46,143 bases of DNA from NCBI GenBank assembly GCA_008632985.1, contig QPGO01000225.1:62001-108143 (forward strand). The letters run 5' to 3'. The notes beneath the pieces are model-generated. The model did not search any database, was not told the DNA's origin, and saw only the letters and a program-made list of their open reading frames with translations. Made by a program: the position numbers and the translations under genes. Below, in pieces: positions 1 through 39,390 of the stretch; the first letter of the stretch is position 1; every line of letters starts with the position of its first letter. Origin of the DNA: Psammoneis japonica (Eukaryota).

Positions 1-699
1 GAACAGGATCCCAATGCCACACAATGTGAGACACCTTTAGCCATCTGGTGCAAGGTTCACTTTCAAGCTGCAAGCATTGGAGCATCTTGACCATCCATGG
101 GAACTTTGGGGTGGCCTTCAATGCAGCAATGCAATTGGCACAACAGTGCATGGACCAGAGTTGAGCAAACATTTCAAGGATGCATTCACCCCTTGGCATG
201 CCAATGACTCTGCAGCAGCAGGAAAATTCAACATCCTGCTGATTTTTTCTTGAGAAACTCTCCAAGCCAAAGGCCCCAGGCATGGATGCTGCCCTGCTGT
301 CAACTCCAATGACATCCTGACAGTCCCAGAGTGCAACTTGGAAAAAACACCAGCGCAACATTCTGCCAGTGCCAATCGGTGAGATCTTGGCTGATGACAA
401 CCACCCAAGAGTTGCCCCATCTGCCATCCCAATCAAAATTTTTGGGGCTGTTCATCTGTCATCCCATGGAGTCTGCAGCTCACAACTGCAAAGCAAGTGC
501 TCTCACATGCTCTCCCATGTGATCAAGTCACTCCATGGCTGATCCCAGCCCTCTTCCACAGTCCACTGGGACACACTGCATGCAAAGTGAAATGAGAAGC
601 AGCCAAATGAAAAGTTGAAACACACGAGGAGACCCTCAAAATGACTCTCAGGACTCTGCCAGACCTCAAGGCCAGAGCTGTCAAGCACAGCAGTGTGAC

Positions 700-1200
700 T
701 GTCAGTGCACCCGTCAACACTGAATTGCACGGAACTGTCGCGCCAAGAGTTCTGCAATGCGCTCTTCTTTTTGTGGCATGGCGGCACTCCGCCAGACCTC
801 TCTGAGCACTGCAATCTGATTGGCAAGGCTTGCAAACCTTCCCACACATGCAATGAACCTCTCATCAACCCCGCTGGTTGTTGCATCTCAGGAAGCCCAC
901 ACACCTTCTCTCCAACAAGTCCAAAGATGGCAATCACAAAAATCTTCTTGCCATGAGATTTTAGGACAGAAAGACAGACATGGTGTTGGGCATTCACGCT
1001 CCTGATGAGGGCAAAGTCTTGCCTGTCTGAAACACCAGAAGAGGTCCTGGCAATGCTGTGGCTGGCGTGGCACCCCCAGAGCATTGTAGAGACAATTTTT
1101 GCTTCTTCTCATCTTGGGGCTGCCCACTCTGGCATGCACTGGCGGTGCCCCCCCCCACCAAGCACCACAGCGTGGCAAGACATTGCCACACTGGTGACAA
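700..1200 (+). pseudogene. possible degenerate tyrosine recombinase remnant (DIRS/Ngaro/Crypton-like)
   Basis: Fragments in different frames: ALFFLWHGG (like FFxxRxGE), ILGQKDRHG (like FxxQKN), and SSHL-GAATLACTGGA across a 1-bp shift near 1105-1150 (like HSxRxGAATxAY). Heavily eroded. Confidence 0.3.
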
Positions 1201-4200
1201 CACAAGTGACCAAGATCAAGGGAAGGCATCTTTCTTTGCACTGGCTTGGTTCATTTTGCTGCCACAGCAAGCAAGGCCCCGCTGGCTTGAGTGGAAGATT
1301 CTGGGTTCCCTCTTCTCAATTTTTCTGTGGATCCCCATCTTGCTCTGGCTGATTGTCACATCCATGAATGACACAAGAACAGTCTGATTCCATTGCTTCC
1401 CATCTTGCATGGTTTTAACTCTCATGATCATGGATCACGCATGTCCTCCACCCCCTGCACTTTTGCATCAACTGGCAATGACAACAATGTTGCCCCTGAT
1501 GAAGTGAGGATTGCCAATGAGCACAAGCACCCAGCTGAGGTGCAAGGTGGTTGAGGCAACATGGAACAAAACAACTCAGATGAACAAGAAGAAGAGTGCT
1601 TGATTGAGCAGCTTGTGTGGGAAGATTTGAGGAGCAACATCTTTGAAATGGTTAAAAAGGTGACCAAGAAACCATGCCATCCAACCAGTGAAGGAAATGT
1701 CCGCTGTTTTGCCAACCTCAAAGATTTTTTATTTTGTTGCCCGGGCAATCATGCTGGGCTTGCTTTTGCAATGTCTGGGAAAATGTGCATTGTGATGATT
1801 TGGCTGTCATTAAAATTGCCTTGACACATGTCTTGTTTGCAACCCAAGACCAAGAACCAACTCAAAAAATGCCACAGTGCCGTGCACTGCACACCATCAA
1901 TTCTTTGAACTTTTCTCATCTCATCCACTTGCAAGATTCTCAAGGACATCAACATGCACATTTGTGGGGAGTTTGCTGTCATTGTTCTGACACATGGACC
2001 AAGTGCTGTTGCTGCCACAGTGCACCAGGAGGAACAGAATGCTCAAGGAAATCCTGGAATCAATTTCCAGCACTCCTGATGACTGTTGAGCAAATTGAAA
2101 GCCATTTCAACAACAGTGGCAGACATGGCCATTTGCAGTGCTGTGCATGAATCAACACTGTCCAAAAATCAAAACATCCGTGAGCTTCGTGCCACATTGT
2201 CAACTCCGTGCAACATTGAGCCACAATCAATTTTTTTCATCTTTGTGCAACCACACAAAAACAGACCCTCATCTGCAATTTGACAAGCAGCTTTTCGTGG
2301 TCCAATCAAAAGCAGTGTGTGGATGTGGCACGGAAGAGCTGGCACTCACAAGTGCACAGACAAAGTGGTGTTGTCACATCAGCATGATGGTTGTGTTTGC
2401 ACAGCTGGCAGCTGACCTCTGTGATCTGTGACAGCTGCTGCCAGCAGTGCAGAGAGCTGCCACTCCAGCTGCTCCTGCAGCAGCAGCTGGAGTGGAGCTG
2501 CTCTCCACCAGCTGGTCATCTGCACAGATGGCACATTTGGGCAAAACATGCTGTCAATGTGATGCCCCAGTCCAAAATGCCACCACTCTTTTTCCAATGA
2601 TCCCCAGCTGTTTTTCCGTTGATGGAACTTTGTCAAACATTGCCGGGCATGTGGGCACATGAAACACACAAGGAAAAATCAATTTGCAGCATCGTTCCAA
2701 GGCTTCTGAATGCACAACAAACGTGTTCATCACAGTTGGGGGCCACAAATCAATTGCTGGCACACTTTTTTCATGTGAAAACATGCAGTTTTGTGTGCTG
2801 TCTTGTGGAATCGGTGCCAGAAATGCCACAACCAGAAACAGCACACATGCTGTCATGCCATCCATGTGGACAACCACTGGCCAGCTCTGCTGGAGCAGAG
2901 AGCACAGAGAGAGCTCTGACAGCAGCATCCACAGGAGCAGAGCTGCTTGCAGCAGCTGTGACATGTCACAAAGACTGCCAAGAAACCACCATCAACCACC
3001 ATCAATGACTCACACCAATCACAGATCAAGAAACAAATGAGATTGGAGGTCTGGGGTTCAAAGCAAGAATGGAGCCCCACTTCTGTTCTTGTTTCATGCA
3101 ACTTGTTCTTGATGAGTCTTTGCACCATTTTCATCTGTGTTGGGTCCAGCACAAATGCGGGTCACTTCTTGTTTCTTTGCAGCTCTTTTGTTGATTGTCA
3201 AGTGGAGTGGTTTTTGTTCTCACAATTTAGAGATTGGTCAATTCACACCTCTCAAGATGTCCATTTTGCCATTTCATTCTCTGTGGTGCAAACCCACAGA
3301 GCAGCAGCTGCAGCGCAGCTGGCTTTTGCCACCAAAGGCACAGATTTGTCCCAGCGTCAATGTTTTTGCAACACCAGCAAGACACACTTCACTGTGTTGC
3401 AACTTCATTGTTTCAGCCCCTTCATTTTTTCATTGCAACAAACAAAGAATGTTGAAGTGTGTCAGCAGGCACTTGTCCTCCACTCATGAAAGCTTTGCCG
3501 CACCTGTTCCCCCATGTGTCAGCTTGCTCTGTCAAGGGCACAAGGAAGGTTGGACTGTGTGCTGATGATGGCCACCAGACACTTTCCAGGTGGACTGCAC
3601 AGCAGTGCACAACCCTGGACCCAGCAGCAAGGCCACTTTCCTGTGTTTGTGGGCTGCTTGCAGTTGACAGCTGATTGCACAGAAGTGCACAGTGGAAAAC
3701 GTGACTTCCAGCATTGCAGGTGCTGCAGGTGCTGCAGGACAAGTCCTTGGGACCAACAAGTTGCAACATGACTGGCCATCATGTAAATGACTTGCTCTGT
3801 GTGAAGGTTCTGTGCAGGGTGCATGTGCTCAGTGCCAAATGTGACCACTGTCACACAGAGATTTAGTTTCCACATGTCCAGCCATTGCACCTGGTCTTGT
3901 GACATCTTCCATCACAACAAACTGTTGTGCTTCAAGCACTTGGGCCTGTCCCTGCACATGTCAAGAGATGAGATGATCTCTCTGACCAAGATCTTCTCTT
4001 GCTCTTTCTTGCTCCAGAGCACATGCATTGTCCACTGCAACCAGTTTGCAGGGGGAGCTCTTGGCTTGTCCTCACTCATGCCACAGGTGTGGCACTTTGA
4101 TGCAGTCAGCATTGAACCAGCTGAGGACTTGAGCACAGCAGAAAGATTTGTTTGGCTGTCCACACTCTGGACATTTGTGAAAGCCCATCCTTGCAAGTGT

Positions 4201-4429
4201 TCCTTTTTTTGAAAATGCTCTGCACACAAAGCATGCATGCTTTGTGCATCACCAAAGGTCATGCTTTGTGTGTGTTTACTTTTGCTCTCTGTTGAAGCAG
4301 GCATCCGCAGTGACACTGATTTTGCAGAAGCACCCAGTGGAAAATGTGTCTCCCAGCACCTGCATGAGAGGCTTGTTGCTGCAACAAAGACAAGAAGACC
4401 AAAACAAAGAAAAGCTTCAAGGAGGAAAT

Positions 4430-4740
4430 GAAGTTGTTCTGTCAGTCATTGATGAGCAGCAACTTGCACAATGCAACATTCAAAGATGCCAAGGAAAAGA
4501 TTGTCAGCCATGTGCAGAAAGAGCATGGTCAAGGCACATGTCTGGAAAGGTCTCCAGAAGACATGACACATGCAAGTTTTGTTGGTGAGAGACCTGCATT
4601 GGAGATGACAACAACAACAGCAAAAGCACCCAGTGGTGCAATTTGCCAGAGACAGGCAAATGAGAGAGTGCGTGAAAAGAAAGACAGCTTGAGTGTGAGC
4701 ACAAGATCAAGTTGCATGACTGCAATGAGAAAGTGAAGAA
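4430..4740 (+). pseudogene. possible LTR-retrotransposon gag remnant
   Basis: NATFKDAKEKIVSHVQKEHGQG..ERSPEDM resembles the N-terminal Gag region of diatom Copia-type elements as I recall them. No zinc knuckle seen. Confidence 0.3.
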
Positions 4741-4786
4741 GCTTTGTCAGAGAGGCAAGAAAGGGCACATCAGTCACAGGACATTG

Positions 4787-5260
4787 TTTGGCACTTTGAC
4801 CTGGTGAGCGTGCTTTTGCGTTGGCCCATCTCTGATTGAAATGCATGCTCCCTTGCAGCATTGGCAGCTGACCTTTCACATTTTTGTTCTGCAAGGACAC
4901 AACCATTGCTTTGCAACCAAATTGTTTTGTGCTTCAGATGTTTGCTCAAGTGCTTGTGCAACAACAGTCACAACAGCCCAGCACCAACTCACTCAATCAA
5001 ACATTTGCAGTTGCAGCACTTGGGCCATCATTTGGCACTTTGACCTGGCCAGTGTGCTTTTGCATGGCCCATCTCTGATTGAAATGCATGCTCATTTGCA
5101 GCATTGGAAGTTGACCTTTTGCGTTTGCATTTCACATTTTTGTTCTGCAAGGATGCAGCCATTGCCTTGCGACCAAATTGTTTTGTGCTTTGGATCCCAA
5201 TGCAAGTGCTTGTGCAATGACAGTCGCAACAGCCCAGCATCATTTCGCTCAATCAAACAT
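4787..5260. repeat. diverged tandem duplication, two copies of ~220-230 bp (4787-5004, 5031-5260)
   Basis: Both copies start tttggcactttgacctgg and end ctcaatcaaacat, and share gcccatctctgattgaaatgcatgctc and tttcacatttttgttctgcaagga. Confidence 0.9.
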
Positions 5261-6929
5261 GCGCAATTGCACTTTTGTGTTGCCACAGACACTTGCAATC
5301 AGCATTTTTTGAAGGTGTCAATGAAATTTTTGCACTCAATGTTCACACATTGGATGTTGACATGCTCAGTTGTCAGGGCAATGCCCAGAGCAAGGCAAGC
5401 ACAGATCCACTTGGTCTGTTGTGTGAAGCAACTTGCACTGCATTTTTTGGTCCTCACTGCAACACTTCTGTGCGAAATTTTCTGGCTGTCAACTTTTTCT
5501 GACTTTGGCAAAGTTCAAGCAATGTGGACAGAAGGTGCGTTCCCATGAACCCACTTGGTCAGCTGCACAAAGCAACTTCCATTGCAACATTTTGTCCTTG
5601 CTGCAAGACTTCTGTGTGAAAAATTTTTGCTTCATTTCAACTGATGTCATGGGGTGAGATTTTTGCATGCCCCGCAGGTGGCGTGGAGAAATCTCCCAAC
5701 CACCATGATGACTCCCTTTTGACTCTGCTCAAATTGTTCCATCATGACAGAAGTGTGCAAGCTTTTCCTGGCCCTTTTGGAGCAACTGGGAAAGTGAAAG
5801 AGGAGCCACCACAGAAAGACACAGATGACACCTTTTTGATGCACTGTTGTCAGGCAGAGGTGGTGCAGCCAGTCATGAGTCATGATGGAGTGCCCTGCTT
5901 TGTGTTTTTGTGTTGTGTCTGTGTGCAGGAATGCACACACTTGGATCTTGGACAGTTCCTGCATAAAAAGTGTGCCAGCTGATCTCTGGACTGCCCCTCT
6001 TGAGTGCTCACATGCAAGTGTGGACTTTTAAAAATGAAGCCACATGGGAAATGTCTCCAAAAACTGCTGAATTTTTGCAAAGCCATTGTTGTCAAATGTG
6101 TCTGCAGATGAAACATGAGCCAACATGTTTTGTGCTGTTTGAGGCCATGTGCACAAAAACAAAACTTGCTTGCATGATCATGGCAGTTGATTGGAAAGGT
6201 GGGCATTGTGCCATCTGTGCACAATGTGATTTGAGCGAGATCTGGTGCTGTTGCCACATCATCAGCAACAGTGTTTTGGTTGTCCTCTTGGGCAAAATGT
6301 TGCGGTCATCTGCAAGTTGGTGGTTGGCACTTGGTCTTGGCAGTGGCAGCCCAACTCAAGTGAAGCCATTTGTTTTTGCAGAGGGACATGCCAATGCCAT
6401 CATTTCACTGGGGATGCCTGGATCTGATCTGGGATGAAGGGATGCATGATCCTCTTAGCCAACGGTGAGCCCCCAGTGTCTCAGTGATGCTCATTCTTGC
6501 ACTGACATGGTTGCATGCCTCTGAGCATGGCTTTTGCCATTTGTCAGCAGCTGGGCTTGAAGAGATCACACACAATGCTGCTTTGGCCTCTTTGCCAAGC
6601 AGCCCATCACACAACAAGACAAAGGGAGCAAAATGGTGTCATTCCTCAAGTTGAGATGCTCGCACTTCTTCTCTCACTCTGTGAGTTGCTGGAGTTGCCT
6701 CTGGGCTTCCTGAGGTGTGACCAACAGTGGGATTGATGAGGTGCTTGTTGCGCACACAGGAGAGCTTGTGAGCCTTGTTTCTAACCAGGTTGCACAGGTC
6801 TTCATGCACTTTGTCATGTCATGAGATGACTGGACCACCCTTCTTGCACCAAAGGGTGTGGCAGCACTTGGGGAGATTGGGGGGAATGCTGCCATGCTGC
6901 AACATGCTGTGCACAGCTCCAATGATCTG

Positions 6930-7330
6930 GGTGCAGAGGGCTCTCTCTGTCCCTTCTCAATGACCACAAATGGCCAGAGCAGGTTGGGCTCAATGTTTGC
7001 CAACAACTTTGTCATGATCCAATCTTCACCATGCTTGGGTTCTGGCAGCAAAGTCCAAGTGAATGCATTTTGCACACAAGCACTCATCACATCACACTTT
7101 TCCATGGCACCAGTTGTGTGACAGCTGTCAGCATTCTTCCTTCCAACAGTGCCATGAGGCTGGCTTGCTTGTCTTTGGCTGGCCACTCCTCTGTTGGTTT
7201 GCCGCTGTGAGCCACTCCCCCTTTTGTGTGACCATTTGTTCTCTGCTGGAAACACCAGAACAGCAACCATGGCCTTGGTCCTTTCACTCAGAGCCACATC
7301 TTTGATGAATGCTGGTGCAAAATGCACTCA
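6930..7330 (-). mobile_element. Ty1/Copia (CoDi-type) reverse transcriptase fragment, degenerate
   Basis: GHTKGGVAHSGKPTEEW..DKQASLMALLEGRMLTAV (like KGRxVYNGKPTREW..ASPT..ESIxLTAV), then after a frameshift DVMSACVQNAFTWT.LP..KHGEDWIM (like DVMTxDVPNAFIQ..GEERIIM). Confidence 0.8.
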
Positions 7331-7369
7331 GTTGTGGAGCTGTCTGACTGACTTCTTTCTTTGAGGCTC

Positions 7370-8040
7370 CATGCAAGCTGCTTTGGTCTGCCACTTTTTT
7401 AAAGAATGTCTGAAGAGAGTCTGTGGTGCCAGATTTTTGAAAATGCAACCAGCTTCTTTGTGAGCAGTCTCAAGTCCTGTGCACAAAAATTGCTTCACTT
7501 TGAGGAAAGAGCTGCCGCCATCACACACCCAAGCTTGATGACGTGGAAGTTGCTTGGGCAGTGACCAGCTTTGAAGCCAAGGAAAAGAACAAAAAGCAGC
7601 AAGTGACAGCACACTGCAAAAGGCACCTTGAGCACGAGGGAGTGCACGCAAAAGCAACCAGCTTCTTGTGCCCCCAAAATTGCCCAGGGAGGGTGGCTGG
7701 ACCTCCTTGGGTGGCAGAGCATCTTGATCCATTCACCCTCATGTGACATGTGACGTCATCAGCCAATGACCAACAACGTCCCTTTCAACTTGACGCAATG
7801 GCGGAGACAAAAAAAACTGCTCAAGACTTTGAAAGAATTGCCATCATGCAATGACCAAGCTGTGCACTGCGTTGGTTTGTTGCCATTCAAAAAATGTCTG
7901 AAGAAAGTCTCTGCATGTCGAAAGGCTCGTGGCACCCAATTTATGAAAGCACAACTGACTTCTTCATGAGCAGACTCAAATCGTGCATGCAAAAATTGCT
8001 TGAGTTCAAAAGAACTGCCTTCATCACATGCCAAGACCAC
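7370..8040. repeat. diverged direct repeat, ~7370-7550 and ~7855-8040
   Basis: Shared blocks aatgtctgaaga.agtct, cttct...tgagcag.ctcaa, caaaaattgctt and ccatcaca/tcatcaca. Confidence 0.7.
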
Positions 8041-9438
8041 GAGCTGTGTCAGTCTTCCATCTTTTAAAACAATGCCCAAAGAAAGTCTCTGCACATCGAA
8101 GTGCTCATGGCGTCGGATGTTTGAAGACACTCCCATGGAGCGTTGCACTTTTCAGTCTGGCCAGTTGGTTTTTCCATGCAATTTCTGCATGGCACGTAAA
8201 ATTCTACGTGGCCTTGGCACTTGCACAAAGCTCCTCACGATGTGTCGCTCCCCGCTGATGCTTGCCATGGCACCGATGCATTGTCATTTGTTGCACAGTG
8301 CTGAACAGGATTTGGTCAACTTCCACGCAACGGGGTTCACACAAAAGCGACAAATCACAGGAGCAAAATGCAACTGCCAAGGGAGAGAATCTTTAAGTGT
8401 CAAAACTGAGCTGACTTTGCAGAAGCAGCGGCCATCAAATTTGCTGCATGCAGATCCCCACCTTTCCATCTTCATTGAGCATGACAATGGAACAGGCCAC
8501 TGGGCACATTTCGCCATTCTTGTTGAAATGACATGATTCTGCAATCATGCGATCGCCCAAGGCTCCCAGACAATTGTTTTCAAAAGGCTGGGAATCCAAA
8601 ATGAAGCAGACAAGACAAATGGCTGAGCATTCTTGGAGAGCCAACAAGAATGGATGGCCCAAGCACCAATCAGAAATCAGACGCTTCTTGGAAAAGCTTC
8701 CAGAAGGCACTTGCCAAAAGCAGACACAAGCACAAATGAAATTTGTCAAAAAGCATGTTGCACCTCCCTTCCAACAACCAGCTCCACACTGAGAAGAACC
8801 TTTTGTGTGCTGCCTTTAAAGAACTTGGTGCAAGAACATCCTGCAGGCAACAATTTGGTCGGTCTGGCATCCCTTTGAACGGAGATGCACATGCTGTTGA
8901 AACCTTTGGCAGGACGTGGGAAAAGAATGTGAAGGAGCATCTCATCCATCAATCCAGAACAAGCCCAAGTCTCTGCATGCTTGGGTTGGTCAAGTGTTGT
9001 TTCCAGGCATCCCAAATCCAGGTGCAACAAAGAGGAGTGTGTTGCATCAACTTGAAAGACTTCAACTTCACTCCTCTGTCCAATGTTGTTGACATGTCGA
9101 AAGACAAGGCAAAACAAGGGGCAAGAGCTGACACCACAAGAGCAAAAGACGTCAAAGGAATGACGAGCCACAAAACAAAGAACACCTCCCAAGCCGGGAG
9201 TGGTTTGAAGACACAACCAGCTTCTGCATGAGCAGCCATCGAACCCCGAGTCACGACTCCTCGTGAATGAATTTTGATCCTTTCGACTCGACTCTCCTCA
9301 ATTGGTTGAGTCACGACTCGTGAATGATTGATGACCCATTCGACTCGACGCAATGGTGGATTCAAAAACTGCTCAAGACTTTGAAAGAACTGCCATCATG
9401 CAATGACCAAGCTGTGCCCTGTGTCGGTTTGTCGCCAT
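7784..9438. repeat. ~100-bp dispersed direct repeat, 7784-7886 and 9339-9438
   Basis: aaaaactgctcaagactttgaaagaa.tgccatcatgcaatgaccaagctgtgc occurs in both. The left copy has ttcaacttgac where the right has ttcgactcgac. Confidence 0.85.
9248..9350. repeat. two tandem ~60-bp units containing the hairpin motif GAGTC-AC-GACTC
   Basis: gagtcacgactc at 9248 and 9308, each followed by cgtgaatga and later ttcgactcgac. Confidence 0.8.
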
Positions 9439-9439
9439 A

Positions 9440-12290
9440 GTCTCTGACATATTGTGTTGATTCGTTGTATTGTGGATGACATAGACTTAGTATGTGTCGG
9501 ATTTCATTGACGACTGGACGAGCATTCTCAAAGCCCTCCTCCGACAATCTACCATGCCGGTGCATCCGCCACCGTTCTAAAAAGCTGTACACGTGAGCTT
9601 CAAGATGATGAAACTTCAGGAACACACTTACCCAAGATCTCGGTCTGTTGGTTTCTTTTGGGATTTCAGAATCTTTTTGATGCTGCAAGCAAAGGCCGCG
9701 CAACTTTTTCAGAGCTCTCCATCACCTGGCTCTGTTGAAGCATCATGTAAGTTTTGATGCTGGTCATACCATGCATGGCACTGCGCCACATTCTCACAAA
9801 TGGTGTCTCACTTTTCTGAGCTGTCATTCCGTCTGCGTGGCTCAACTCGTAACCGCTGTGCTCAGCGCGAAACCTCACCTGCACCAAAACCTCAAAGCTC
9901 TTGTTGTGTACAAACTCACCTCTCCCTTTTGGCTTCATGCTATTCTTGGAGCAATGTGATTGCACAGATGAGACAAATCGAGTAAGTCCCTCCTGCAACC
10001 TATGCTCCTGTCCCAAGTTCGTCATCACGGTAGCATGATGGCATGCTGCAATTCTTCTCGGAGTCCATGTACATTGTTTCTTCATCTTGGTTCCCACTTG
10101 CCATTTCCCTCTCAAAATCCTTTTCTAATTTCCTTTGGGACTTAACATACTGACTTGAATTCCGTCTCGCCTTGAGCCATCCTGGACACTTCTCCTGATG
10201 CGATTCTCTGCCGCGGCATGTTCACGTTCGACCTCAGCGCTCCACGCTGAATTCTTTTCAATGAAACAAATGCGCTTCCTGATTTCATCAGCAAAATGAG
10301 TGAAAACGCCTTGTGGTGTGTGCATGGCTGTCATCGTTTCCTTGTGAGGTGGCACTCTCAAAAGCGGAGCCTTGTGAACGCTTCCGCATTCAAGTCTGTC
10401 TTCTTTGTTGGATGACGGTACGTTGCCGTTGTGGGTGCGTTCGGCCCACTTTTGGTAAAGCAAGTGATTGGCAAAGTCTCCTTCACGTACAGGGGCTGGT
10501 GTGCATTCGACTGTCACTATCTTATTTTCGACATCCATTTCTTGTATCCATTTGGGGGCGTGGCTTGTAAAGTAAATGTGATCTTCCGCGCAAATCAGTT
10601 ACATTGATTGGATGCAGTACCTTGGCCAGAAACTATCAACGACTGCTTTGTATCGTTGCTCGGAAACCCAACTTTTTGCTGGAATGTCACATTGATGTTT
10701 GCGTTGTCCCCAACTACGAGTTTACCTTCTTCGAATTCATGGCGACACACAATTGGCCCGGTGGCACCGACGGAAAGTCTGAAGCCGTCACAGTCACTAG
10801 AAGTTTCACTGAACTTTACAAACGTGGCAATGAGCTCAATCTTGCTCCCTGTGGCAGTCGTGTAGCTTGACAGATCCAACGTGTCAGGCTGTTCTTCATT
10901 TCTTCTTCCTCTGCCGGCAGAGCGGCATTTGAAAAGGAGGCGTCGACTGCAATGCTGTCAAACGTCAATGAACATTCACCGTCACTGGAAGAGGCGATAA
11001 ACTTGATGGAAGCGCATTTGCAACAGCTGCATCCATTGCCGGCGTCGAATGTGATGATGTGGAGGGCATCGTCCACCAGATCTTGCAAGAATGCTGTCAT
11101 TGGAAACATCACAATACTGTAGGCAGAGGCTCGACGGCTGAACTCGCATTCCGCTGCACACTCGTACTGGCACTGGGGCTGGCAATTTGTCCCTTTATTT
11201 CCGTCTCTGTGATTCGCTATTCGAATCAAAAGGGTGAATGCATCACCTCCTTTGTCACCGCCGAATACTACGACGAGTTCGTTCGTTTCGGAACTGAAGG
11301 ATTCGGATTCCTCGAATTTGCCAGCAACGTGGCATACCTCGGTGAGCTTCTCCAAAACCCGTCGCGGTTGCTTTATCCACCAAAAGCCCTTAAAGCTTTT
11401 TTTGTTTCCATTCTTGTCTATGATCACGGGTTTTAGAGTTGCTCCATGCGCCAAACTCCCTTCTGATTCACATCGTGAGATTATCTTCTTCAGCTGGGTA
11501 GAGAATATTCGAATGTTGAGATGAGCCTGGATAAACCTACTGTCCAGCCGCAGCACTCCGTTTAGACTCATCTTAACGTAGTCCCTAAGCGCTGTGACCT
11601 TTGACTCATCGAGCACGAGATCTTGTGTGCTACATAGAGCATAATCGAAACTGCTTGCAACCAGTTTCAAAAGGGCATGGTCCTCATCGCTGCTCTCTTC
11701 AAGCAATTCAATTACTTGGTTGACTGTCTTTGTTTTCGCTGCAGGTTTTCGTGGTTTTGGCAGCACTGCGTAAAGTCTCTTAGTTTTGCGATTTGCCTTG
11801 TCTAGGACGGTCAACTTCGTGATTGCATTTCCTGTCTTATCGGACAATGATTGCAGAACTGGATGGGCAAGTGCCTGCAGTTCTACAAATGGCAGAAAAT
11901 CCTTCTCAGTGCACACTGTCGCAAGCAACTGTGTTACCATGCCAGCTGCAGGAGAGGAGGGGAAACCCATTTGATCCTTGTTGCAAGCAACGACAAGATT
12001 GCAAGTGCACAATTTGATGAAGTTGGGGTGAAATTGTTCTCATCCCTGAGTTCCAGCATGGTGATGAAGAACGCACCAGAACAATCACCAAGTCTGAGCA
12101 TTGGGAATCTTGCAAGAAGCTTGTTCAAGCAACAATTTCAAATTCTTAGTGAGCACCAAGTCAAATGCCTTCTTGGAGATGTCGAGCTGCTCCAGAAGTG
12201 TGACAGCCTTGGGGAAGCGATTTTTTTGTTTCTTGTTGAGCTTGGGGAGGCCACCACAGTTTCCCAGGTTAAAACTCCCTGCCCTTGATT
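9440..12290 (-). mobile_element. RAG1/Transib/Chapaev-like DDE transposase pseudogene (frameshifted)
   Basis: Consecutive minus-strand ORFs 10816-12012, 10595-10879, 10125-10538, 9666-10115 and 9362-9703 give, in order, VVVFGGDKGG (D1), SNDTK (D2), MHTPQG (like LHxxLG) and KFHHLEAHV..F..RW...GRLSEEGFE (like KxHxL..H...G..SEExxE, catalytic E). Confidence 0.7.
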
Positions 12291-12740
12291 CTTTTCATGT
12301 GAGCAATGAAAGGCTCCAACCAAGCCTCTGTCTCTGTGCCAAAACAAGCCACAAAAAATGTGTTGGTCAGCTGCAGAAAGATTTTCAAAACAGGGTTCCA
12401 AAAAAGTGTCAGTGGCAGCCACAATGTTCTTGCTTCCAACACTTGGTCAAGGCTTCCCATGTGAGCCAACATGTGTCAAGGTTCCTGTGCAGGGCCATCA
12501 CACTGAGTGTTCTCACACCTTTGCCCAACATCTTGCCATGGCTTTCACTCATCAGTCAATGCAATTGCAGTGTGTTTTGCTCACAGATTTTGCACTCTCC
12601 CTCCAATCATCTTCAAGTGACACAAAACAATTTTGGTCACATGATTCAATGCCAATGCCATCACCTCACACAGAACTTGAACTGTGGTGTGCTAAAAAGA
12701 TGTGTTTTTGGCAAAAAAGAAAAGCATTCTGTTGCCTGTG

Positions 12741-13207
12741 GTTGTTGACATCATTGATGGTCAAGGGGCAGGGGGGGACACCAACTCTCAAGAGAGACCT
12801 TGCACAGGAACAGCATGATTTGCCACAGTGATTCTGATGACAATGAAGCTGCAAGATTGTTCTTGATGCTCAGTGCGTTGCAAGTCCTGCTGCCGAAACA
12901 CATGGCAAAAGGCAGATTCTGAGTCTGACAAGTCAATGGCAGAGAAAGTGTCGTTGTTGACAAATGCAGCCACATTTGCAAGCAGCACTGTTGTTTCCAT
13001 GGATGCAACAAGTGACAACACTCCTGACAGCATGAGACAGCATGTTTGCCAAAGCCCAAGGAAGACAAGGGGAAGATCCATTTGGGCTGTAGCCTGTTTG
13101 ACATTCTTAAGAGCCAACACAAGTGTGGTGCTGTTCTTGGTCTGTTGGATCAAAATAAAACCAGCTTTGTGGTGCTTTCATCATCTGCCAAAGGAATGGG
13201 AGGACTC
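12741..13207 (+). pseudogene. hypermutated duplicate of the 5' region and first ~120 codons of the TBC1D23-like gene at 39541
   Basis: Colinear with 39417-39900. ADSESDKSMAEKVSLLTNAATFASSTVVSMDATSDNTPD here matches ADSESNKSTAEKESLSTNVATSASSAAASTDAISNDTPD there. Start codon lost, frameshifts present. Confidence 0.9.
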
Positions 13208-13219
13208 AACGCCACCAAT

Positions 13220-14770
13220 CTCTTGCTGCTGCTGTTGCTGCTGCTGTTGCTTGCTTCTGTGTGCAAGATGCTGTTCTTTCACTCTGCTTTGTCAGGAAGT
13301 GAACAAGCAGACAGCCAAAGGAAGGTGGGTGCTTCTTGGTCCACAAACCCCATCATGCACAGCTGCTCAGCTTCCTTTGTTTGTCTTGCAGGAGCTCCAG
13401 CTTTGGCCACTCTGCACAAAGTGCCACATGCTGGCCAGAGCAAAAAAGCTGCTTGTGGTGAGTTCTTGAGGTTTTCCAGCAGCCCTCCTCTTGGGTGTCA
13501 TGAGGCCTTCTTGAAGCCAGCACAGAGAAGCTGTTTGTGAGTTGAGGTGGCTGTTGAGCTTGTGACAGCACACTCTTTTTCATTGCTTGTTCCCCAGTGC
13601 TGCTCATGTTTGCTGCCACCATTGCTGCTGCCAGCACAGCCTGCAGCACCAGATGTCACTCTCTTCCTTTCAGCATTGTCAGGAAATGAGCAAGCAGGTC
13701 ACCAAAGGAAGGTGAGTGCTTTTCATCTTCTAAACCCACAGTGTGCAGCTGCTCAGTTTCTTGCATGGCTTGAGCTGCAGGAGCTCAAGCTTCAGCCAAA
13801 AGCTGCTTGTGGTGGGCTGAGGTGTTGAGCTTCTGACTGTCCATTCTTTTTCATTGCTTGTTCCCCACTCCTTTTTGTGTTTGCTGTCACAGCTGCTGTT
13901 GCAGCCTGTGCAAGATGTTGTTCTTTCTGCCCTTGTTGTCAGGGAATGAACAAGTCTTGGAAACCAGGTGACTGTCAAAGATGTGACAAGGTGCAGCAAG
14001 ATGTTGTTGTTTGTCCTTTCTGCATTGTCAGGAAACAAGCAAGCAGCTCACCATGTGCTGCACCCTGACAGACATCTGTGGAAAAGGCAAGCACATGCTT
14101 GGCTGCACAGCTGCTCAGCTGCTTGTGTTTTTGCAGCATCAGCTTTTGGTTTTTTCATGATGAACAGAGGCAAAAAACAATTCACAGGCAAGGAGGCCCA
14201 ACCCAACAGCTCCACATTTGACAACCTGCTTGCTTCTGTCAGCAGGATCAAAAACTGTGGGAGGCAAGCAAGCCTGCATGCAAGAGGGGTGCTTGTCATT
14301 TCAGCCACCCTGCACAACACCCACATGATGGCCAGCACAGCTTCCACTGGACTGTTGTTTCCCAGTGCTGCTCATGTTTTTGCTTTTTGCCATTGCTGTT
14401 GCAGCCTGTGCAACATGTTGTTCTTCTTTTCCATGTCATGATCAGGGAATGAACAAGCAGAGCAGAGCACCAAAGCAAGGTGGGTGCTCTTTGGGCTTTT
14501 AAGACCCACCAGCATGTGTGGCTGACAAGCTTCTTGTGCTTGTGTTGCAGGACAAGCTCCAGCTTCAGCGACCTGGCAGAAAACACCAGGTGCTGGCATC
14601 ACAGAAGCTGTTTCTTGCATGCAAAGATGATGAGTTTGTGACAGCCCATTCTTTTTTGTTGCTTGTTTCTCAACGCTGCTCATGTTTTGCCATTGCTGCT
14701 GCAGCCTGTGTAAGATGTTGTTCTTCCTTTCCATGCTGTGTGAGAGAGTGAACAGGCAGGTTGCCAAAGG
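13220..14770. repeat. degenerate satellite-like array of ~5-6 related units (~100-390 bp spacing)
   Basis: Recurrent core gctgctg(tt)gcagcctgtgcaagatgttgttct...ttgtcagg(a/g)a.tgaacaagcag...ccaaag near 13240, 13620, 13890, 14000, 14390 and 14690. A related copy lies near 19860-19940. Confidence 0.7.
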
Positions 14771-16399
14771 AATGTGGGGTGCTCACATTTGGAAAATGTC
14801 GCGGCTCTTGTTCAAAACTCACATTCTCTTGTTCAGGGTTCTGTTTTCTTAACAAGTTCCAAGTGATTGTCAACAAAGGGAACTTGGCAATTGTTTGAAC
14901 ATTCCAAGTGGGATTTAACAGCTGATGCAAATCAGTCTTGTTGTGCACACATCCTTGACAATTCTTTGTGTCTGCTCATTTCAAACCTTCCAAGCAGGAA
15001 ATGACACTCAATGAAATGCGTCACTTGCATCTGTTTCCATCTCAACAACCATGTGTTCGCAACAACATTCTGACATTGTCCACTTCTGACAACCATGATG
15101 TTCAATTGTCCTCCATGCTGCTTGTTGTCTGATGTGCAATTGTTCTGTTTTGTTGTTTCCACACTGCATGCTGCAAAATGCTCCCTTTTTCCTGTTCTTT
15201 TTTTCCTGTGTTCCACCAGTTCCTGTTGTCTTTCACAGTCCCCACACCATGGGTGTGATGTTTTCAGCCCTTGTGGCCTCCCTTGCAACCACTCTTGCTC
15301 TCTCCACAATCATCCACACCAGCAATGACATTGTCCTCCAATGGTCAATCTTGCATTCCTTCTGTTTGGCTGGCCAAAGCATCGCCTGCAAAACTGGAGA
15401 AAAAACTTTGTCTCAATGATCAATTTTTGTGCATGTTTGTGTTTCTTACAATTTTGTTTCATGCACTGCTTCTGCTCACCTTTGTGCCCTTCCCCATTGC
15501 CCATCTTCCATTGCAGCTCAGGACATGTGTCTGGACATCTGTGCACAAAGATGTGCACAAGTGTCAGTCATTTGCTTGTGGGCCCATCTCCATGCATTCG
15601 CCACTTGTTTCCTCTTTCTCACCTTGTGTCCTGCATTTTGTTCCATCCCATTCACAACTCCGCTGCCTGTCACCACTGCTCTCATGCATTGCATGTGACT
15701 TGAGATTGCATTTTTGTGTCTTGTGGGGGGAGTGACAATTCGTGTTTTTGGCCAAAATGCAAGCCTTGCTGTCAGTTGATTCCCACCGGCATCTCTTTTT
15801 CAGCAACAATTTTGTTTTAAAATTCAATCTTTTTGTTGCAATGTGATGGTTCAAATGATTTGAAACAACCTCAATGAATCATTTAGTCATCAATGTCACA
15901 CGCATGCATTCAACAAGTTTGATTTTATCACGTTGATGTGTTCTTGTTAAGATTGGAATTTTCACACTCGTGCCTGCACACTCCCATCTCCAGGACTTCA
16001 ATCAACACCTTTTTTCCAATGACAAAACAAGTGACATCCTCTGGGTTGTCAGGAAAGGGGTCTTGTGGCAACCCAATCAATGGAAGAACAAAGGCAGCAG
16101 ACAACAGACAATGTGTCAGAAATTTCAACAACTCTGATTTCTGACTCTGTTTCAGTGCTGAAGAAAAAGGTCAGCAGCAAATCTTTGGATGGCACAAAGC
16201 TCCAAAGTGATTGGATTGCACAAATTGTGGATTTGCCCTCCTTTGTTTTATTTTCCAAGGTTGCCCAACAACACATGAGTTGCAACAGAAATGGCTCATT
16301 TTGTTCTTGTCCCAGTTCACCATGGACCAGCTGTGCCAACTCCTTTGTTCCCATGGGCAGGAGTGAAAGTGAGGGTGGCATCTTAGAATGTCATGTTTG

Positions 16400-23375: not shown

Positions 23376-23376
23376 N
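23376..23376. other. single N, probable scaffold/contig join
   Basis: atggcNtctg; the sequences on either side appear unrelated. Confidence 0.7.
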
Positions 23377-30863: not shown

Positions 30864-30869
30864 CCGACG

Positions 30870-33052: not shown

Positions 33053-33053
33053 N

Positions 33054-35697: not shown

Positions 35698-36090
35698 TAG
35701 AGAGGCGGCAGCGTTGCCGTTGGAGCCATTCGGTGTTGTGAGTCTTCTTTCAGGTGACAACAACATGAAATGGTTGCCTGCATTTTGCACGATGGTGGAG
35801 TGCTTGGGAAGATCCATGCCAACAGGAACACTCATTTCAAGCTGCAATCAGTCAGAGCGATTCTCAAGATGAGCAAGTTGCGTGTGGTTGCAAGTGGGGT
35901 GGATTCAAGAGTGGTTTCCATCAAGAAACAGCTTCACAAAAAGTGGATCTTGGCTCATGCACAAAGACCACATGTGCATGATGTCACCTCTCAAGTGCTG
36001 GGCTTGGCCATCTTGACAACGGGCAGCCTTGAAGGTGCAGCAGTCACAAAACAGACCCGCAATCTGGGGCTGGTGCACCCGCAATTCTGA
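35697..36090 (+). pseudogene. WD40 fragment resembling UTP4/Cirhin, degenerate
   Basis: RVVASGVDSRVV....KWILAHAQRPHVHDV (like UTP4 VFxxGVD...W......RxHTHDV). Stops and deletions present. Confidence 0.5.
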
Positions 36091-36842
36091 CTCTCACTGT
36101 GTCCATTAAGATGGACCTCAATGTGGACAAGAACACTGGCATTTCATCAAAGGGCCAGGAAACCATGTCAGGATTTGCTGCAAAGCTCTGTTTGCACATT
36201 TGCGGCCTGTTCATGCTTTGCAACCTTGACCATTGTTTGTGGCATGTGGCGGCACGGTGGGGAGAGCAAAGTGAGACTGACACAGTGTCAGCAACATTTG
36301 AAATGACAGAGGTGGAAGTCAGCATCACAATGTCACCATCCTGTGAGAATCCCAACTTGGTGTCATTGCATTGACACAGTCTCTGGCAAGGTTGAGTGTG
36401 AGTTGCGCATTTCAGGATGCTCGCTGGGGGCTGGGTTCGTTTGGGTGCTTTTTTGTGATCCTTCAAACAAAATTTGCTTGACCAGGCAGAGAGAGTGTGC
36501 CATCAGACTGACTGCAGTTCAGAGCTGTGCATGAGCACAGGGGGTCAGATGGTGAAATCCCATGCAGAGCCCTCCTGGCATGGTTTTTACGTGATCTCAA
36601 CAAGAGCACACACAGTCTGTTGAGCTGGAGGGGGGAAACTTTGCAATGCACCGCACAGGACATGTCTCCAGCAGAATGACAGGAGGTCATGACTTTTCAA
36701 GACATGGCACTGGGTGCAACCAACAGAGCCCAAGACTGCTGACAGCAATTGTTTGCACTCCCACCTGTCTCTTCACTTGGTCTGAGCCTCCTGTGTCTGC
36801 CCCCCACCCCCCACCAAAGACGTGATGCCAACAGGCAGGAGC

Positions 36843-38138
36843 TCAAAATGCAGACTCAGATCTTGAGGGCAGCTCAAGGTTGTAAAATGGATGTGCTGTG
36901 ACAAAGATGCCATGCCAAAACCTTCTTTTCCAAGGTTTGACACTTTCTGGAGTCATCCAACATCTGAGAAAATCGGTTTTTTGAACGGCCCATTCACACT
37001 TGAGTGGATTTACTTTCAAACCATTCTCTTCTGGCTGTTTCAGCATCGCACTCAACACTGCCAGATGATCCAACCAAAGGATTGAGAAGAGACCAACATC
37101 ATCAATGAAGCAGTCTGTGTCCATGTCAGTCAGCACTTCCTCAATCACCACTTGAGCAATGGTGCCTGGAGCTGGCTTTAATCCCATCTCAAGTTGACAA
37201 CATTGGAGCTTGCCACAAGGAGCAACAACAGTGCACAGTTCCTTGGATTCTTCATCCAGCTCCAAATTGCAGTGGAACATGGACAAGTCCAACTTGGTGA
37301 AATGCTTGTGTCCCTTTCTCTTCTTAAAAATGTCTTGAATTCTTGGCAAAGGACAGATCAACCTCTTTAGCACCTTGTTGAGCACGCAAAAATTGGATGC
37401 CCACCACACTTGTTGATCCTTTTCAGGTGTGACAAATGCAGGAAATGCCCACTGAGTGGGACCACAAGGCCTCAACACCCCCATTCAGACAAGATGCTGA
37501 AGTTCTTTTTTGAAAATGTCTTGGTGAATTCTTGGAACAGCACATGCTTGAGCATGGACAGGAATTGCTTTGGCATCAATTTCCAAGTGAACCAACATGT
37601 GTGGATGCTGACCCCATTCTCTGTCAAACAGCTTGGAAAATTTGGCCAGCACTTGTTGCAACTCCAATTGCTGCTCTCTTGATTGATGCTTTTGCTTCTT
37701 GGCCACTTCTTCTGGAGATGCTGACTCACACTTGGCACCCAAAATTTGAGCAGCGCATGAATGAAACTCAAATTTGTCAATGTCCTCCTTGTCTGCTTCT
37801 GGACCTGCAAGAGCAAAACAAGCATTCTCTGCATTGTCCCAAAAGGTGAGTTCTTTCACAGGCATGGACTTGTCCAACCATTTTGCTGTTCTTGATGAAA
37901 AATTTACATCTGTCCCTGCTTTGGTCAAAAAATCCAATCCAAGAATCATGTTGCATTGACACAGCATTTGAAATGCCAGCGCTTGTTGACAGTGAATGCT
38001 CCTTGACCTGTCAAATTCAGGTGATGCAATTGTCTCTCCAAACCAATCACTCCATTGCTGTTCATTGGTCCTGCAGCCACATTGCATGCAACTGTCTTCT
38101 TGCACAGACTTGGAGTGGCTCTGTGTGCCAAACATCAT
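36843..38138 (-). mobile_element. Ty3/Gypsy pol relic (aspartic-protease end + reverse transcriptase)
   Basis: MILGLDFLTKAG, WAFPAFVTPEKD, LNKVLKR..CPLPRIQDI, FTKLDLSMFHCNLELDEESKELCTVVAPCGK, CFIDDVG and GLKVNPLKCEWAVQKTDFL. Confidence 0.92.
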
Positions 38139-38539
38139 TCATGAATGAGAGCAGCTGCACTGCCTGAATCAAACAACACTCTCAACAAACGAGATGAGTG
38201 AGCTCCACTCATTTGTTTGCACACCAGCCAAGACTGATGTGGGTGCCATGCATGTCAGCATTCATGCTTTTTGCCTTGGGCACTGGCACTCCACTGCAGC
38301 TCAATTCCACTTGTTCATCTTCATTTTTCTCATTTTTGATTTGGTTTCCATGCAACAAATGTGTGTCATGTGAAGGCTTGTGTTCAATTGGTGCATTTGT
38401 GTCAACGGCAATGGTGCTGTCAACTTCAAAGCTGACACCAGGACTGGAGCAGCACTCCAAACTGGATTGCAATCCAGGTCCTCTTGGGTGCAGACCTTGT
38501 CCAATGTCCATTCCTTCTGACCTCTTGTCAGAACCTCCT

Positions 38540-39390
38540 GGTGGACCACAGCCCACATTTCAGACCCTCGCCCCCCTCTCCGGCATTTGCACCGACTCTT
38601 CCACCGTCCATCATGAACCCACCAACCTCGAACCCCTCACCCCTCAAACACCCCGCTGATGCAGGCATCCAGCTCAATCCAGCTGCTCCCACTGCCTCCC
38701 CCTGTGGCCACCAATGCCTTGCAATCAACACCACCATTCCCAAACCTCCTCCACTGCCTGCTCCTGGCTTGCCTGCCCCATCCTCAAACCTTGTGCCAAG
38801 GCACACCACGTGCACGAGCACCAAACAGAAGTTGGACAGAACACACAAAACTCAACACAAAGCAACCCTTGCATCTGCCCTCAATGACACTGGCACCCAC
38901 CTTGTCCCCTTCTCCATTGATCACTTTGAAGCAACTGGCTGCTTTGAACACCGCCTCCTCTGAGGCCCTTTGGAGCCGATTGGCAACACCCCATCTCTGC
39001 CCCACCTGCTCCCCCCTTGGACCACCAAATCCTCCTTCCAACACCCCACTGCCCATGCTGCCCAGGCCTTCACACAACTGTCCCCATCTGCCATCCTCCC
39101 CACTGCCGCCGCCACTTGGAAAAACACACACCCCTGCACATTTTGGCTTGACACCCCCACCACACTTCGACTCCATCACAATGGGGCCTTCAAAGCCTTG
39201 GCTTTGCGATGACCAAATCTCTTGCTGACCAACTCACCCGCCACTCCACCAAACTGCTGTCCCAGCTCGCCACTCCCAACCCCAATCCCATGGTCCCTTT
39301 CCCTGCCCATGTTAAATGTGACAAGTAAGTGCCACCCCTCCTCAGCGTCTGTCCCTCCCCCCATAAACATGTCCCTGCCGCACACCACAC
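38540..39390 (+). mobile_element. 3' fragment of a non-LTR retrotransposon with a restriction-like endonuclease (CRE/R2-type), degenerate
   Basis: C-rich strand. FQTLAPLSG....VHHEP, HPADAGI...CLAINTTIP (like RPAD...AIDVT) and LVPFSIDHF (like PFxxDxxG). Confidence 0.55.

Follow-up and report, generated by a model that had tools for sequence, protein, structure and literature searches.

Stretches of DNA with almost no TpA, as well as almost no CpG, lie beside DNA of ordinary composition in the window analyzed here (the whole stretch of 46,143 nucleotides). The question raised by this locus is what removes TpA, and whether it acts apart from CpG decay. The original prediction was a second, TpA-specific A:T>G:C process on both strands, separate from CpG decay; a pair of paralogues, the conserved tyrosine columns of two transposon remnants, the block edges and a runs test all bear it out. 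It had also been thought that such a process was without published description. However, the available text of a 2026 preprint already describes, from mutation-accumulation lines of Bigelowiella natans, TpA>TpG/CpA hypermutation that strikes integrated viral DNA (Mettrop et al., bioRxiv 2026; 10.64898/2026.01.13.699255). Our reading, to which we give roughly two chances in three, is that two context-specific transition processes drove four stretches of mobile-element and pseudogene DNA to a TpG/CpA end state.

Four blocks depleted of TpA and CpG

Dinucleotide observed/expected ratios (o/e) were scanned in sliding 1-kb steps across the window, and block boundaries were set from TA positions (Table 1). 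At the 1-kb scale, TA o/e is 0.00–0.10, CG 0.00–0.25, and TG/CA 1.6–2.2 in four blocks, vs. 0.5–0.9 for TA and ~1 for CG in the flanks. Both the scan and the counts agree with the four blocks first noticed in the sequence, whose coordinates fall within ~100 bp of the TA-defined boundaries. The latter are sharp to tens of bases. Pooled (26.1 kb), the blocks contain 73 TA (o/e 0.04), 240 CG (0.16), 2951 TG and 2990 CA (both ~1.8; CpA 1.81). The normal DNA of the window (20.1 kb) has 874 TA (o/e 0.63), 1086 CG, 1496 TG, and 1427 CA. The GC content is ~0.47 inside and outside the blocks alike (0.477 vs. 0.473, from counts).

With the flank composition taken as the ancestral composition of the blocks (an assumption), the TA counts expected in blocks A to D are 432, 538, 59, and 166, and those observed are 22, 42, 1, and 8 (log10 Poisson P of −151, −170, −24, and −59). 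In 200 mononucleotide shuffles, the minimum number of TA in any 9437-bp segment is 577 (vs. 22 observed). The longest run without TA is 1687 bp in the blocks vs. 182 bp in the flanks. On the other hand, the summed YpR frequency is nearly equal (0.2398 in blocks vs. 0.2436 in flanks), and the loss of TA and CG (0.0858, in frequency) is balanced by the gain of TG and CA (0.0819). Since the YpR sum is kept and loss and gain balance, the change is a conversion and not the result of selection.

By their sequence, the blocks are decayed mobile-element and pseudogene DNA, and within the window the TpA process is confined to such DNA, as had been proposed. ORFs of at least 100 aa are denser in the blocks (4.2 per kb vs. 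2.4 outside). Blocks without TAA and TAG stops inflate ORFs, and gene callers will be misled by them.

Table 1. Coordinates and composition of the features in the window
Feature	Coordinates	Strand	Details
Hypermutated block A, continues beyond window start	1..9437		TA 22 (o/e 0.035), CG 105 (0.19), TG 1.88, CA 1.82
Block A edge, TA gone, CG partly depleted	7501..9437
Little-mutated island between blocks A and B	9438..11935	−	TA o/e 0.42, CG 0.84; minus-strand ORF run
Hypermutated block B	11936..23684		TA 42 (o/e 0.050), CG 80 (0.125), TG 1.81, CA 1.86
Hypermutated pseudogene copy of gene start 39501–39900	12785..13207	+	blastn 73% identity, 424 columns
Plavaka-like (CACTA-type) DNA transposase remnant, frameshifted	16018..18660	−	Pfam Plavaka E 9.1e-6, 25.5 bits, slightly below 26.3 cut-off
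Unmutated 456-bp island between blocks B and C	23685..24140		TA o/e 0.83, CG 1.00, GC 0.42
Hypermutated block C	24141..25428		TA 1 (o/e 0.012), CG 12 (0.153)
Hypermutated block D	35699..39312		TA 8 (o/e 0.035), CG 43 (0.196), TG 1.91, CA 1.66
Ty3/Gypsy protease–RT remnant, single frame, one in-frame TGA	36846..38138	−	Pfam RVT_1 E 3.9e-12; Ty3 RT 4ol8 E 3.3e-13
Unmutated paralogue, start of ORF 39541–40374; ancestral-like reference	39501..39900	+	Normal DNA: TA o/e ~0.54, CG 1.14

Polarity, context and strand of the losses

The direction of change can be read from the two paralogues of Table 1, compared by MAFFT alignment with the intact copy as reference. All 10 TA of the intact copy are altered in the block B copy (nine to TG or CA, one to GA), and 25 of its 29 CG have become TG (13) or CA (12). 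Transitions outside these two dinucleotides amount to 11–14%; at the remaining A/T sites, they occur in 22/176 positions and, at the remaining C/G sites, in 19/145 (Fisher P of 0.001 and 1e-6 for the comparisons of TA and CG with other sites). The identity between the two copies is 95% in purine/pyrimidine terms vs. 75.7% in nucleotides.

Products of the opposite type are rare in this pair (TA>CG 0/10, CG>TA 1/29). In nanopore data, modified bases are a known source of systematic C>T and A>G miscalls, so that 5mCpG and modified TpA in heterochromatin could appear as TG/CA in an assembly built from long reads only. On indirect grounds, we consider such an artefact improbable. Strand-specific miscalls, merged at each position, should yield a mixture including TA from CG and CG from TA, both of which are near-absent, the sites being cleanly TG or CA. 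In addition, the block sequences hold many indels, transversions, and frameshifts, as is typical of old pseudogenes, and the available text on B. natans presents the same signature in genuine de novo mutations called by Illumina (Mettrop et al. 2026).

The remnants of two transposons show the same direction. In the Gypsy RT remnant, none of the 10 tyrosines conserved among 55 homologues is kept (6 Cys, 3 His, 1 Phe), vs. 147/212 of the other conserved columns (P 1e-5). Of the 75 altered conserved columns, 21 are compatible with TA>TG/CA, 10 with CG>TG/CA, and 10 with other transitions; the rest are transversions (21) or need more than one change (13). The motif SMFHC (37269–37283, minus strand), expected to contain Tyr–Tyr, indeed faces Tyr in 37/55 and 53/55 homologues at those two positions. 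In the Plavaka-like remnant (114 tblastn HSPs from 50 homologues), 0/11 conserved tyrosines are kept (six are now His), while His is kept in 12/12 columns. The histidine of GQEHPG (codon CAT at 17209, minus strand), suspected of replacing a tyrosine, corresponds to Tyr in 17/17 homologues. These polarised comparisons, though small in sample (10 TA sites in the paralogues, 10 and 11 Tyr columns in the remnants), show the loss of TA and CG to be mutational.

Could the blocks be of foreign origin, their odd dinucleotide composition acquired before arrival and not by mutation in place? Sharp boundaries would fit, as would the large part of block sequence without recognizable protein (no Pfam match at E ≤ 1e-5 in 116/118 ORFs). 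Yet a block carries a degraded copy of a nearby host gene with TA and CG specifically altered, the Tyr and Arg codons of the catalytic domains have given way to codons one TA or CG change away, and the YpR total is conserved. This origin is hardly credible.

The loss of TpA depends on both neighbors. The 73 surviving TA of the blocks comprise 27 TTAA, 41 one-sided contexts (TTAB or VTAA), and 5 VTAB, vs. 29, 256, and 519 in the flanks, with block/flank density ratios of 0.63, 0.11, and 0.0065, respectively (chi-square P 1e-36). VTAB is thus 99.4% lost and TTAA mostly spared; part of the surviving TTAA could be newly created and not spared. The (VTGB+VCAB)/VTAB ratio is 624 and the (TG+CA)/CG ratio 25–36, which would be lower bounds on each rate over background back-transitions. 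Surviving CG are enriched in GC-rich contexts. In runs tests on the order of TG and CA, z is 0.52, 0.37, −1.63, and −0.31 for blocks A to D. The loss of TpA is strand-symmetric, without clustering by strand.

The WA>WG spectrum of somatic hypermutation includes A>G at TA, and Pol-eta-like error-prone repair recruited to repeats had been named as a candidate on that pattern. It fails on the neighbors: AA is not depleted (1.09× the flanks), AG is barely raised (1.06×), A>G at the non-TA sites of the paralogues (14/101) shows no excess after A, and the VTAB rule differs from the Pol-eta motif. We consider it very improbable. Another proposal is a TpA-specific 6mA in silenced DNA, subsequently deaminated or miscopied, alongside 5mC at CpG. 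The target is a palindrome whose two strands are hit symmetrically, the extended VTAB motif resembles methyltransferase specificity, and the parallel with 5mCpG is attractive. However, known eukaryotic 6mA is located at ApT, not TpA, and AT is only mildly down in the blocks (0.86× the flanks). It constitutes a minor possibility.

The two losses separate at the block edges. The boundary of CG depletion is less sharp than that of TA, and the depletion is weaker at the edges. In the pooled edges (7501–9437, 22701–23684, and 38401–39312), TA o/e is 0.034 and CG 0.381, vs. 0.043 and 0.115 in the cores. There, TA loss is uncoupled from CG decay. A single deaminase of dual specificity (e.g., of ADAT2/3-type), able to strip targeted chromatin of both TpA and CpG, would explain why both depletions share blocks with nearly identical boundaries, and amphioxus enzymes of this type deaminate A and C in DNA (cited in the available text of Mettrop et al. 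2026). With edges devoid of TA where CG o/e is still 0.38, contexts that differ in kind (A needs a 5′ T, C a 3′ G), apparent rate ratios ~20-fold apart (624 vs. 25–36), and, in B. natans, TpA hits virtually without C>T (Mettrop et al. 2026), such an enzyme is unlikely.

Two transposon-like regions escape hypermutation, the DDE_1 ORF at 33307–34188 and the island at 9438–11935, and they count against our explanation. The island is possibly a young transposon. ORF 10819–12039 has a weak DUF1280 match (Pfam E 6.5e-4, under the cut-off), and its Atlas neighbors are RAG1/DUF1280-like, which is a lead only. In the island at 23685–24140, no clear terminal repeats are found.

Proposed processes and their agents

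In the two-process reading, the first would be a very fast A:T>G:C change limited to TpA (TpA>TpG or CpA), with the strand chosen randomly at each site, VTAB preferred, and TTAA mostly spared. Its chemistry would most likely be enzymatic deamination of adenine in DNA to inosine, which is read as G, with certain silenced or foreign elements as targets. A DNA adenine deaminase is the most plausible agent. The second process would convert CpG to TpG/CpA more slowly; its most likely cause is that 5-methylcytosine deaminates where repeats are methylated at CG, and by analogy ordinary 5mC decay is the best reading of the CpG loss. What the sequence itself shows is the composition, polarity, context, and strand symmetry of the losses and their separation from each other, whereas deaminase, methylation, silencing, and a role in defence are inferences. 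Neither process remakes the substrate of the other, so that TG and CA are absorbing for both. In the available text on mutation accumulation in P. tricornutum, the mutable context is CG and not TA (PMC6604790), which counts against this explanation.

Tentatively, TpA-specific editing of adenine in DNA may be a genome defence common to distant SAR lineages (Rhizaria and stramenopiles), perhaps wider, with a VTAB rule and refractory TTAA, sharing its silenced domains with CG methylation and running to saturation. If so, whole transposon graveyards would be without TA, TAA/TAG stops, and Tyr codons, and the enzyme would be a natural DNA adenine editor with sequence-context specificity. Before the 2026 preprint, we know of no natural targeted mutation of A in DNA; RIP, APOBEC, and 5mC decay act on C. 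With a second case so far away in phylogeny, what is now a curiosity of one species would become a candidate for a widespread defence. The saturated end state (TA and CG both near zero, TG/CA ~1.8) is easily scanned in any genome. Any candidate enzyme must reproduce the motif, with VTAB hit and TTAA spared, and the same motif is predicted for the mutations tabulated in B. natans. For base-editing work, a DNA adenine deaminase that occurs in nature and is specific to a dinucleotide would be of interest as well.

Comparison with known systems

In fungal RIP, C>T changes fall chiefly on CpA, which leaves TpA and AT-rich DNA behind, and both copies of a duplication are mutated. Common to RIP and the present blocks are transition-only hypermutation, permanent inactivation of mobile or duplicated DNA, and kilobase-scale blocks with sharp edges. 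In contrast, TpA is destroyed here (o/e 0.04), CpA is enriched (1.81), and GC is unchanged. RIP is ruled out by the TpA loss, and also by the single mutated copy (12785–13207) of a gene start that remains intact at 39501–39900.

Deamination of 5mC, as in vertebrates, plants, and diatoms, likewise turns CpG into TpG/CpA in repeat blocks, with both strands affected, but it covers the CpG half only and leaves TpA untouched. In the available text on Cyclotella cryptica, CpG methylation covers diatom repeats in blocks that reach up to 30 kb and adjoin unmethylated, gene-rich DNA (PMC5124317). The TCG-targeted hypermutation of basidiomycete TEs (Horns et al. 2012; PMC3318451) resembles the present case in its repeat-targeted C>T at CpG-containing motifs, outside ascomycetes. 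It involves cytosine only, and TpA loss is not among the features reported in the text available.

Editing at the RNA level is a further comparison. ADAR and ADAT enzymes (TadA-family) convert A to I, read as G, favor U/T 5′ of the A, and act on RNA (tRNA, dsRNA). Here, on the other hand, both DNA strands are affected, and a DNA transposon and a pseudogene are hit symmetrically. RNA-level editing of retroelements (ADAR/APOBEC-like) before integration is rejected, TG and CA being equal and interspersed; since the DNA-transposon remnant also loses its tyrosines, such editing alone is insufficient. Deamination of ADAR/ADAT-type is put forward as candidate chemistry in the preprint on B. natans (Mettrop et al. 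2026).

That system is the closest, and B. natans is the one other alga with a report of TA-specific hypermutation of foreign DNA so far. According to the available text (Mettrop et al. 2026), 210/211 NCLDV-region and 20/20 virophage-region mutations of B. natans are A>G/T>C, all of them at TpA, with a rate excess >1000-fold, and TpA-depleted clusters enriched in CpA and TpG contain RT and DDE domains. The main text of the preprint, as available, has no mention of CpG, TTAA, flanking or context; it thus describes neither the co-depletion of CpG nor the VTAB/TTAA rule. The viral regions of B. natans are partly depleted (Rho 0.45), whereas the present blocks are near saturation (0.04). In B. natans, de novo events were measured, and here the process is read from its end-state sequence. 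As far as the preprint is available, both cases show solely TpA>TpG/CpA for the TpA process, on both strands, restricted to delimited foreign or TE-like regions with the remainder normal, and the ratio of 624 here, a putative lower bound, is of about the same order as the B. natans excess. The host in that case is a chlorarachniophyte (Rhizaria). Named homologues, at 42–65% identity, suggest a raphid pennate diatom as the present host, and the window probably represents a second lineage with TpA hypermutation.

TA- and CG-depleted blocks

All 16 dinucleotides were counted as observed/expected ratios (o/e) in 1-kb sliding windows across the window. In four stretches, TA has an o/e of 0.00-0.10 and CG of 0.00-0.25, with TG and CA at 1.6-2.2; outside them, TA is at 0.5-0.9 and CG at about 1. 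The GC content is about 0.47 throughout, inside and outside. The edges of these blocks (A to D in the table), which are sharp when placed by individual TA positions, agree very closely with the original prediction. Pooled over the blocks of dead mobile-element DNA (26.1 kb), there are 73 TA (o/e 0.041), 240 CG (o/e 0.162), 2951 TG, and 2990 CA, as against 874 TA (o/e 0.63), 1086 CG (o/e 0.97), 1496 TG, and 1427 CA in the flanks, the rest of the window (20.1 kb). The log10 Poisson P for the TA deficit, relative to flank density, lies between -151 and -24 for the four blocks. Among 200 mononucleotide shuffles, the lowest TA count in any 9437-bp window is 577, and the longest run without TA is 1687 bp in the blocks versus 182 bp in the flanks. 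A chance origin of the TA depletion is excluded, and the depleted blocks are a real and striking observation.

Blocks, element remnants, and host genes in the window
Feature	Positions	Strand	Details
Block A	1-9437		Edges from TA positions; TA obs/exp 22/432 vs flank density
Block B	11936-23684		Edges from TA positions; TA obs/exp 42/538 vs flank density
Block C	24141-25428		Edges from TA positions; TA obs/exp 1/59 vs flank density
Block D	35699-39312		Edges from TA positions; TA obs/exp 8/166 vs flank density
Ty3/Gypsy protease-RT remnant	36846-38138	minus	Pfam RVT_1 E 3.9e-12; Ty3 RT 4ol8 E 3.3e-13
Plavaka-like DNA-transposase remnant, several frames	16018-18660	minus	Pfam E 9.1e-6, just below cut-off
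SulP/SLC26 sulfate permease exon	30894-31343	minus	Host gene, normal part of window
SASA-type carbohydrate esterase ORF	44609-45820	minus	Host gene, normal part of window

In the blocks, the stop codons TAA and TAG are nearly absent and TGA is almost the sole one; ORFs of at least 100 aa are 1.7 times denser there (4.2 per kb vs. 2.4 in normal DNA). Gene callers are likely to produce spurious predictions in such DNA. A degenerate internal repeat array, with copies 65-86% identical, occupies 13260-14784 in block B, so that tandem repeats made up part of the DNA that was hypermutated.

In normal DNA, the named best matches of the SulP exon are all raphid pennate diatoms (Mayamaea 65%, Cylindrotheca 63%, Seminavis 63%, Amphora 62%); environmental matches reach 77%, and no near-identical protein is found. 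Pfam gave nothing further for 65 small ORFs around that exon. The esterase ORF has no match above 51% identity over at least half its length. With no near-identical protein for either gene and with diatoms alone among the named SulP matches, a diatom is the most likely source of the window, and an origin from Bigelowiella natans is rejected. A 69-bp tandem repeat (26839-27195, 5.2 copies, 92% match) lies within a 573-codon open frame at 25771-27489, which has no Pfam match and probably encodes a repeat-containing orphan protein. The 169 bp at the left-hand border of block D (35697-35865) have a 98.8% identical copy 2.8 kb upstream, at 32889-33057 in normal DNA; the upstream copy stops at a single N (33053), and the pair may have arisen by local duplication or from a join made in assembly.

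Conversion of TA and CG into TG and CA

Between blocks and flanks, the loss in TA+CG frequency (0.0858) is close to the gain in TG+CA (0.0819), and the four pyrimidine-purine steps together keep their frequency (0.2398 in blocks vs. 0.2436 in flanks), as predicted for transitions inside such steps. The loss is a conversion, and a derived one, with three concordant polarised comparisons.

The first is internal to the window. Self-BLAST shows that block B contains, at 12785-13207, a degraded copy of sequence from normal DNA (39501-39900), where an ORF starts. Over 399 columns aligned with MAFFT, the two agree at 75.7% of nucleotides and at 95% when scored as purine or pyrimidine. None of the 10 TA in the intact copy survives in the block copy (5 CA, 4 TG, 1 GA), and 25 of its 29 CG have become TG (13) or CA (12). 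Background transitions affect 22/176 A/T sites outside TA and 19/145 C/G sites outside CG (Fisher P 0.001 and 1e-6 for TA and CG, respectively).

The second is the Ty3/Gypsy remnant, aligned with 55 homologues (those of 81 spanning query residues 60-395); among named relatives, only one, from Nitzschia inconspicua, exceeds 40% identity. The residue is identical in 147 of 222 conserved columns. Arg is retained in only 3 of its 12 columns and Tyr in none of 10, where the remnant has 6 Cys (TGY), 3 His (CAY), and 1 Phe. The 75 altered columns comprise 21 one-step TA>TG/CA, 10 CG>TG/CA, 10 other transitions, 21 transversions, and 13 multiple changes. The motif SMFHC had been read as a decayed Tyr motif, and the homologues do carry Tyr-Tyr at that place. 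In the third, the Plavaka-like remnant (tblastn, 114 HSPs from 50 homologues), 0/11 conserved Tyr columns are retained (6 His, 3 Phe, 1 Leu, 1 Arg) and His is kept in 12/12; the His of GQEHPG, likewise suspected to replace Tyr, is Tyr in 17/17 homologues. Among 118 block ORFs, Pfam found nothing beyond RVT_1 and the sub-threshold Plavaka match. The effect is equally strong in the retroelement, in a DNA transposon, and in a gene fragment, so pre-integration editing of retroelement RNA does not suffice as an explanation.

A sequencing artefact, in which miscalled modified bases produce the TG/CA state, is very improbable. Strand-specific miscalls in a consensus would be expected to keep or create TA or CG at an appreciable fraction of sites; instead, ancestral sites in the pair resolve cleanly to TG/CA (0/10 TA>CG, 1/29 CG>TA), with TA and CG nearly absent. 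As is typical for old pseudogenes, the block sequences also show indels, frameshifts, and transversions, and in B. natans the same signature arises by genuine mutation (10.64898/2026.01.13.699255).

Context, strands, and the separate decay of CpG

The 73 surviving TAs are a non-random sample by flanking context. Relative to 804 TA in the flank segments n2, n3, and n4, TTAA has a density of 0.63 (27 in blocks, 29 in flanks), sites with only a preceding T or only a following A (TTAB or VTAA) of 0.11 (41 and 256), and VTAB, with neither, of 0.0065 (5 and 519). The classes differ between blocks and flanks with a chi-square P of 1e-36, and the pattern holds separately in A, B, and D. The TpA process thus strips VTAB almost fully and mostly spares TTAA; TTAA sites persist where VTAB are lost, even if some have newly arisen. 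As to which flank inhibits, the 5' T or the 3' A, the three one-sided sites polarised in the pair are discordant.

TG and CA follow one another at random in the four blocks (z 0.52, 0.37, -1.63, and -0.31 in runs tests) and are about equally frequent, so either strand is struck, site by site, without processive one-strand tracts. Processive, strand-coordinated editing is ruled out by these runs tests, in the light of which the His:Cys ratios of 6:0 (Plavaka remnant) and 3:6 (RT) are treated as small-number noise. AT is slightly lower in the blocks (0.86 times flanks). The ratio (VTGB+VCAB)/VTAB is 624 in the blocks, which would set a floor for the TpA rate, measured against that of an ordinary transition, because background transitions at TG and CA keep regenerating TA; the corresponding figure for CG is 25 across whole blocks and 36 in their cores. 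A second, TpA-specific mutator acting on both strands, as originally proposed, is supported. The Pol-eta-like candidate (WA>WG) put forward with it is argued against by AA, which is not depleted (1.09 times flanks), and by AG, which is barely up.

The TpA and CpG losses are read as separate processes on several grounds. At three block edges (7501-9437, 22701-23684, and 38401-39312), TA o/e is 0.034 versus 0.043 in the cores, while CG o/e is 0.38 versus 0.115. The apparent rates are about 20-fold apart, the sequence needs differ in kind (5' T for A, 3' G for C), and surviving CG are enriched in GC-rich contexts. Diatom repeats carry mainly CpG methylation, which forms blocks as long as 30 kb beside unmethylated gene-rich DNA (PMC5124317). 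On these grounds, CpG would be lost through the usual 5mC decay of silenced DNA and TpA through a separate, much faster process. Neither change can make the substrate of the other, and TG/CA is therefore their common sink.

Targeting and comparison with known systems

The 400-bp duplication has one mutated and one intact copy, a pattern unlike that of RIP. A DDE_1 (pogo/Tigger-type) transposase ORF at 33307-34188 is not hypermutated (TA o/e about 0.5-0.6, CG about 1), and the island between blocks A and B (9438-11935) is transposon-like yet also not hypermutated. With one mutated duplicate and such spared regions, targeting looks element- or domain-specific rather than homology-driven. The DDE_1 ORF and an adjoining 308-aa ORF form a spared transposon-like region at 33307-35158 (minus strand). 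Five adjoining ORFs lie in the little-mutated island (9365-12039, minus strand); the largest, of 407 aa, has a sub-threshold DUF1280 match and Atlas neighbours with RAG1 RNase-H-like domains. These ORFs may represent a Transib/RAG1-like transposase, as a lead only. A search for terminal inverted repeats and target-site duplications around the unmutated islands gave nothing convincing.

The original prediction knew of no published description of such a process, a claim overtaken by a 2026 bioRxiv preprint on mutation-accumulation lines of the chlorarachniophyte B. natans (10.64898/2026.01.13.699255). There, two integrated viral regions account for 231 of 302 nuclear single-nucleotide mutations, mutating at about 6e-7 per site per generation; 210/211 and 20/20 of the mutations in these regions are A>G/T>C, all at TpA, and the NCLDV region is hypermutated in only 11 of 15 lines. 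The preprint also reports 124 clusters of 1-kb windows depleted in TpA and enriched in CpA+TpG, 324 low-TpA CDS enriched in RT and DDE domains, and an ADAT2 homologue as candidate (10.64898/2026.01.13.699255). By word search, CpG, diatom, TTAA, flanking, and context are all absent from its main text. In mutation accumulation of P. tricornutum, the mutable context given is CG, not TA (PMC6604790). A full-text literature search found TpA hypermutation only in the B. natans preprint and no TpA loss in diatom repeats.

The window represents a probable second host lineage for TpA hypermutation. Diatoms and chlorarachniophytes are both SAR lineages, far apart. To the process described in B. natans, the window adds a saturated end state, a CpG decay that co-occurs with the TpA loss yet is separable from it, the VTAB/TTAA context rule, strand symmetry without clustering, and evidence against Pol-eta.
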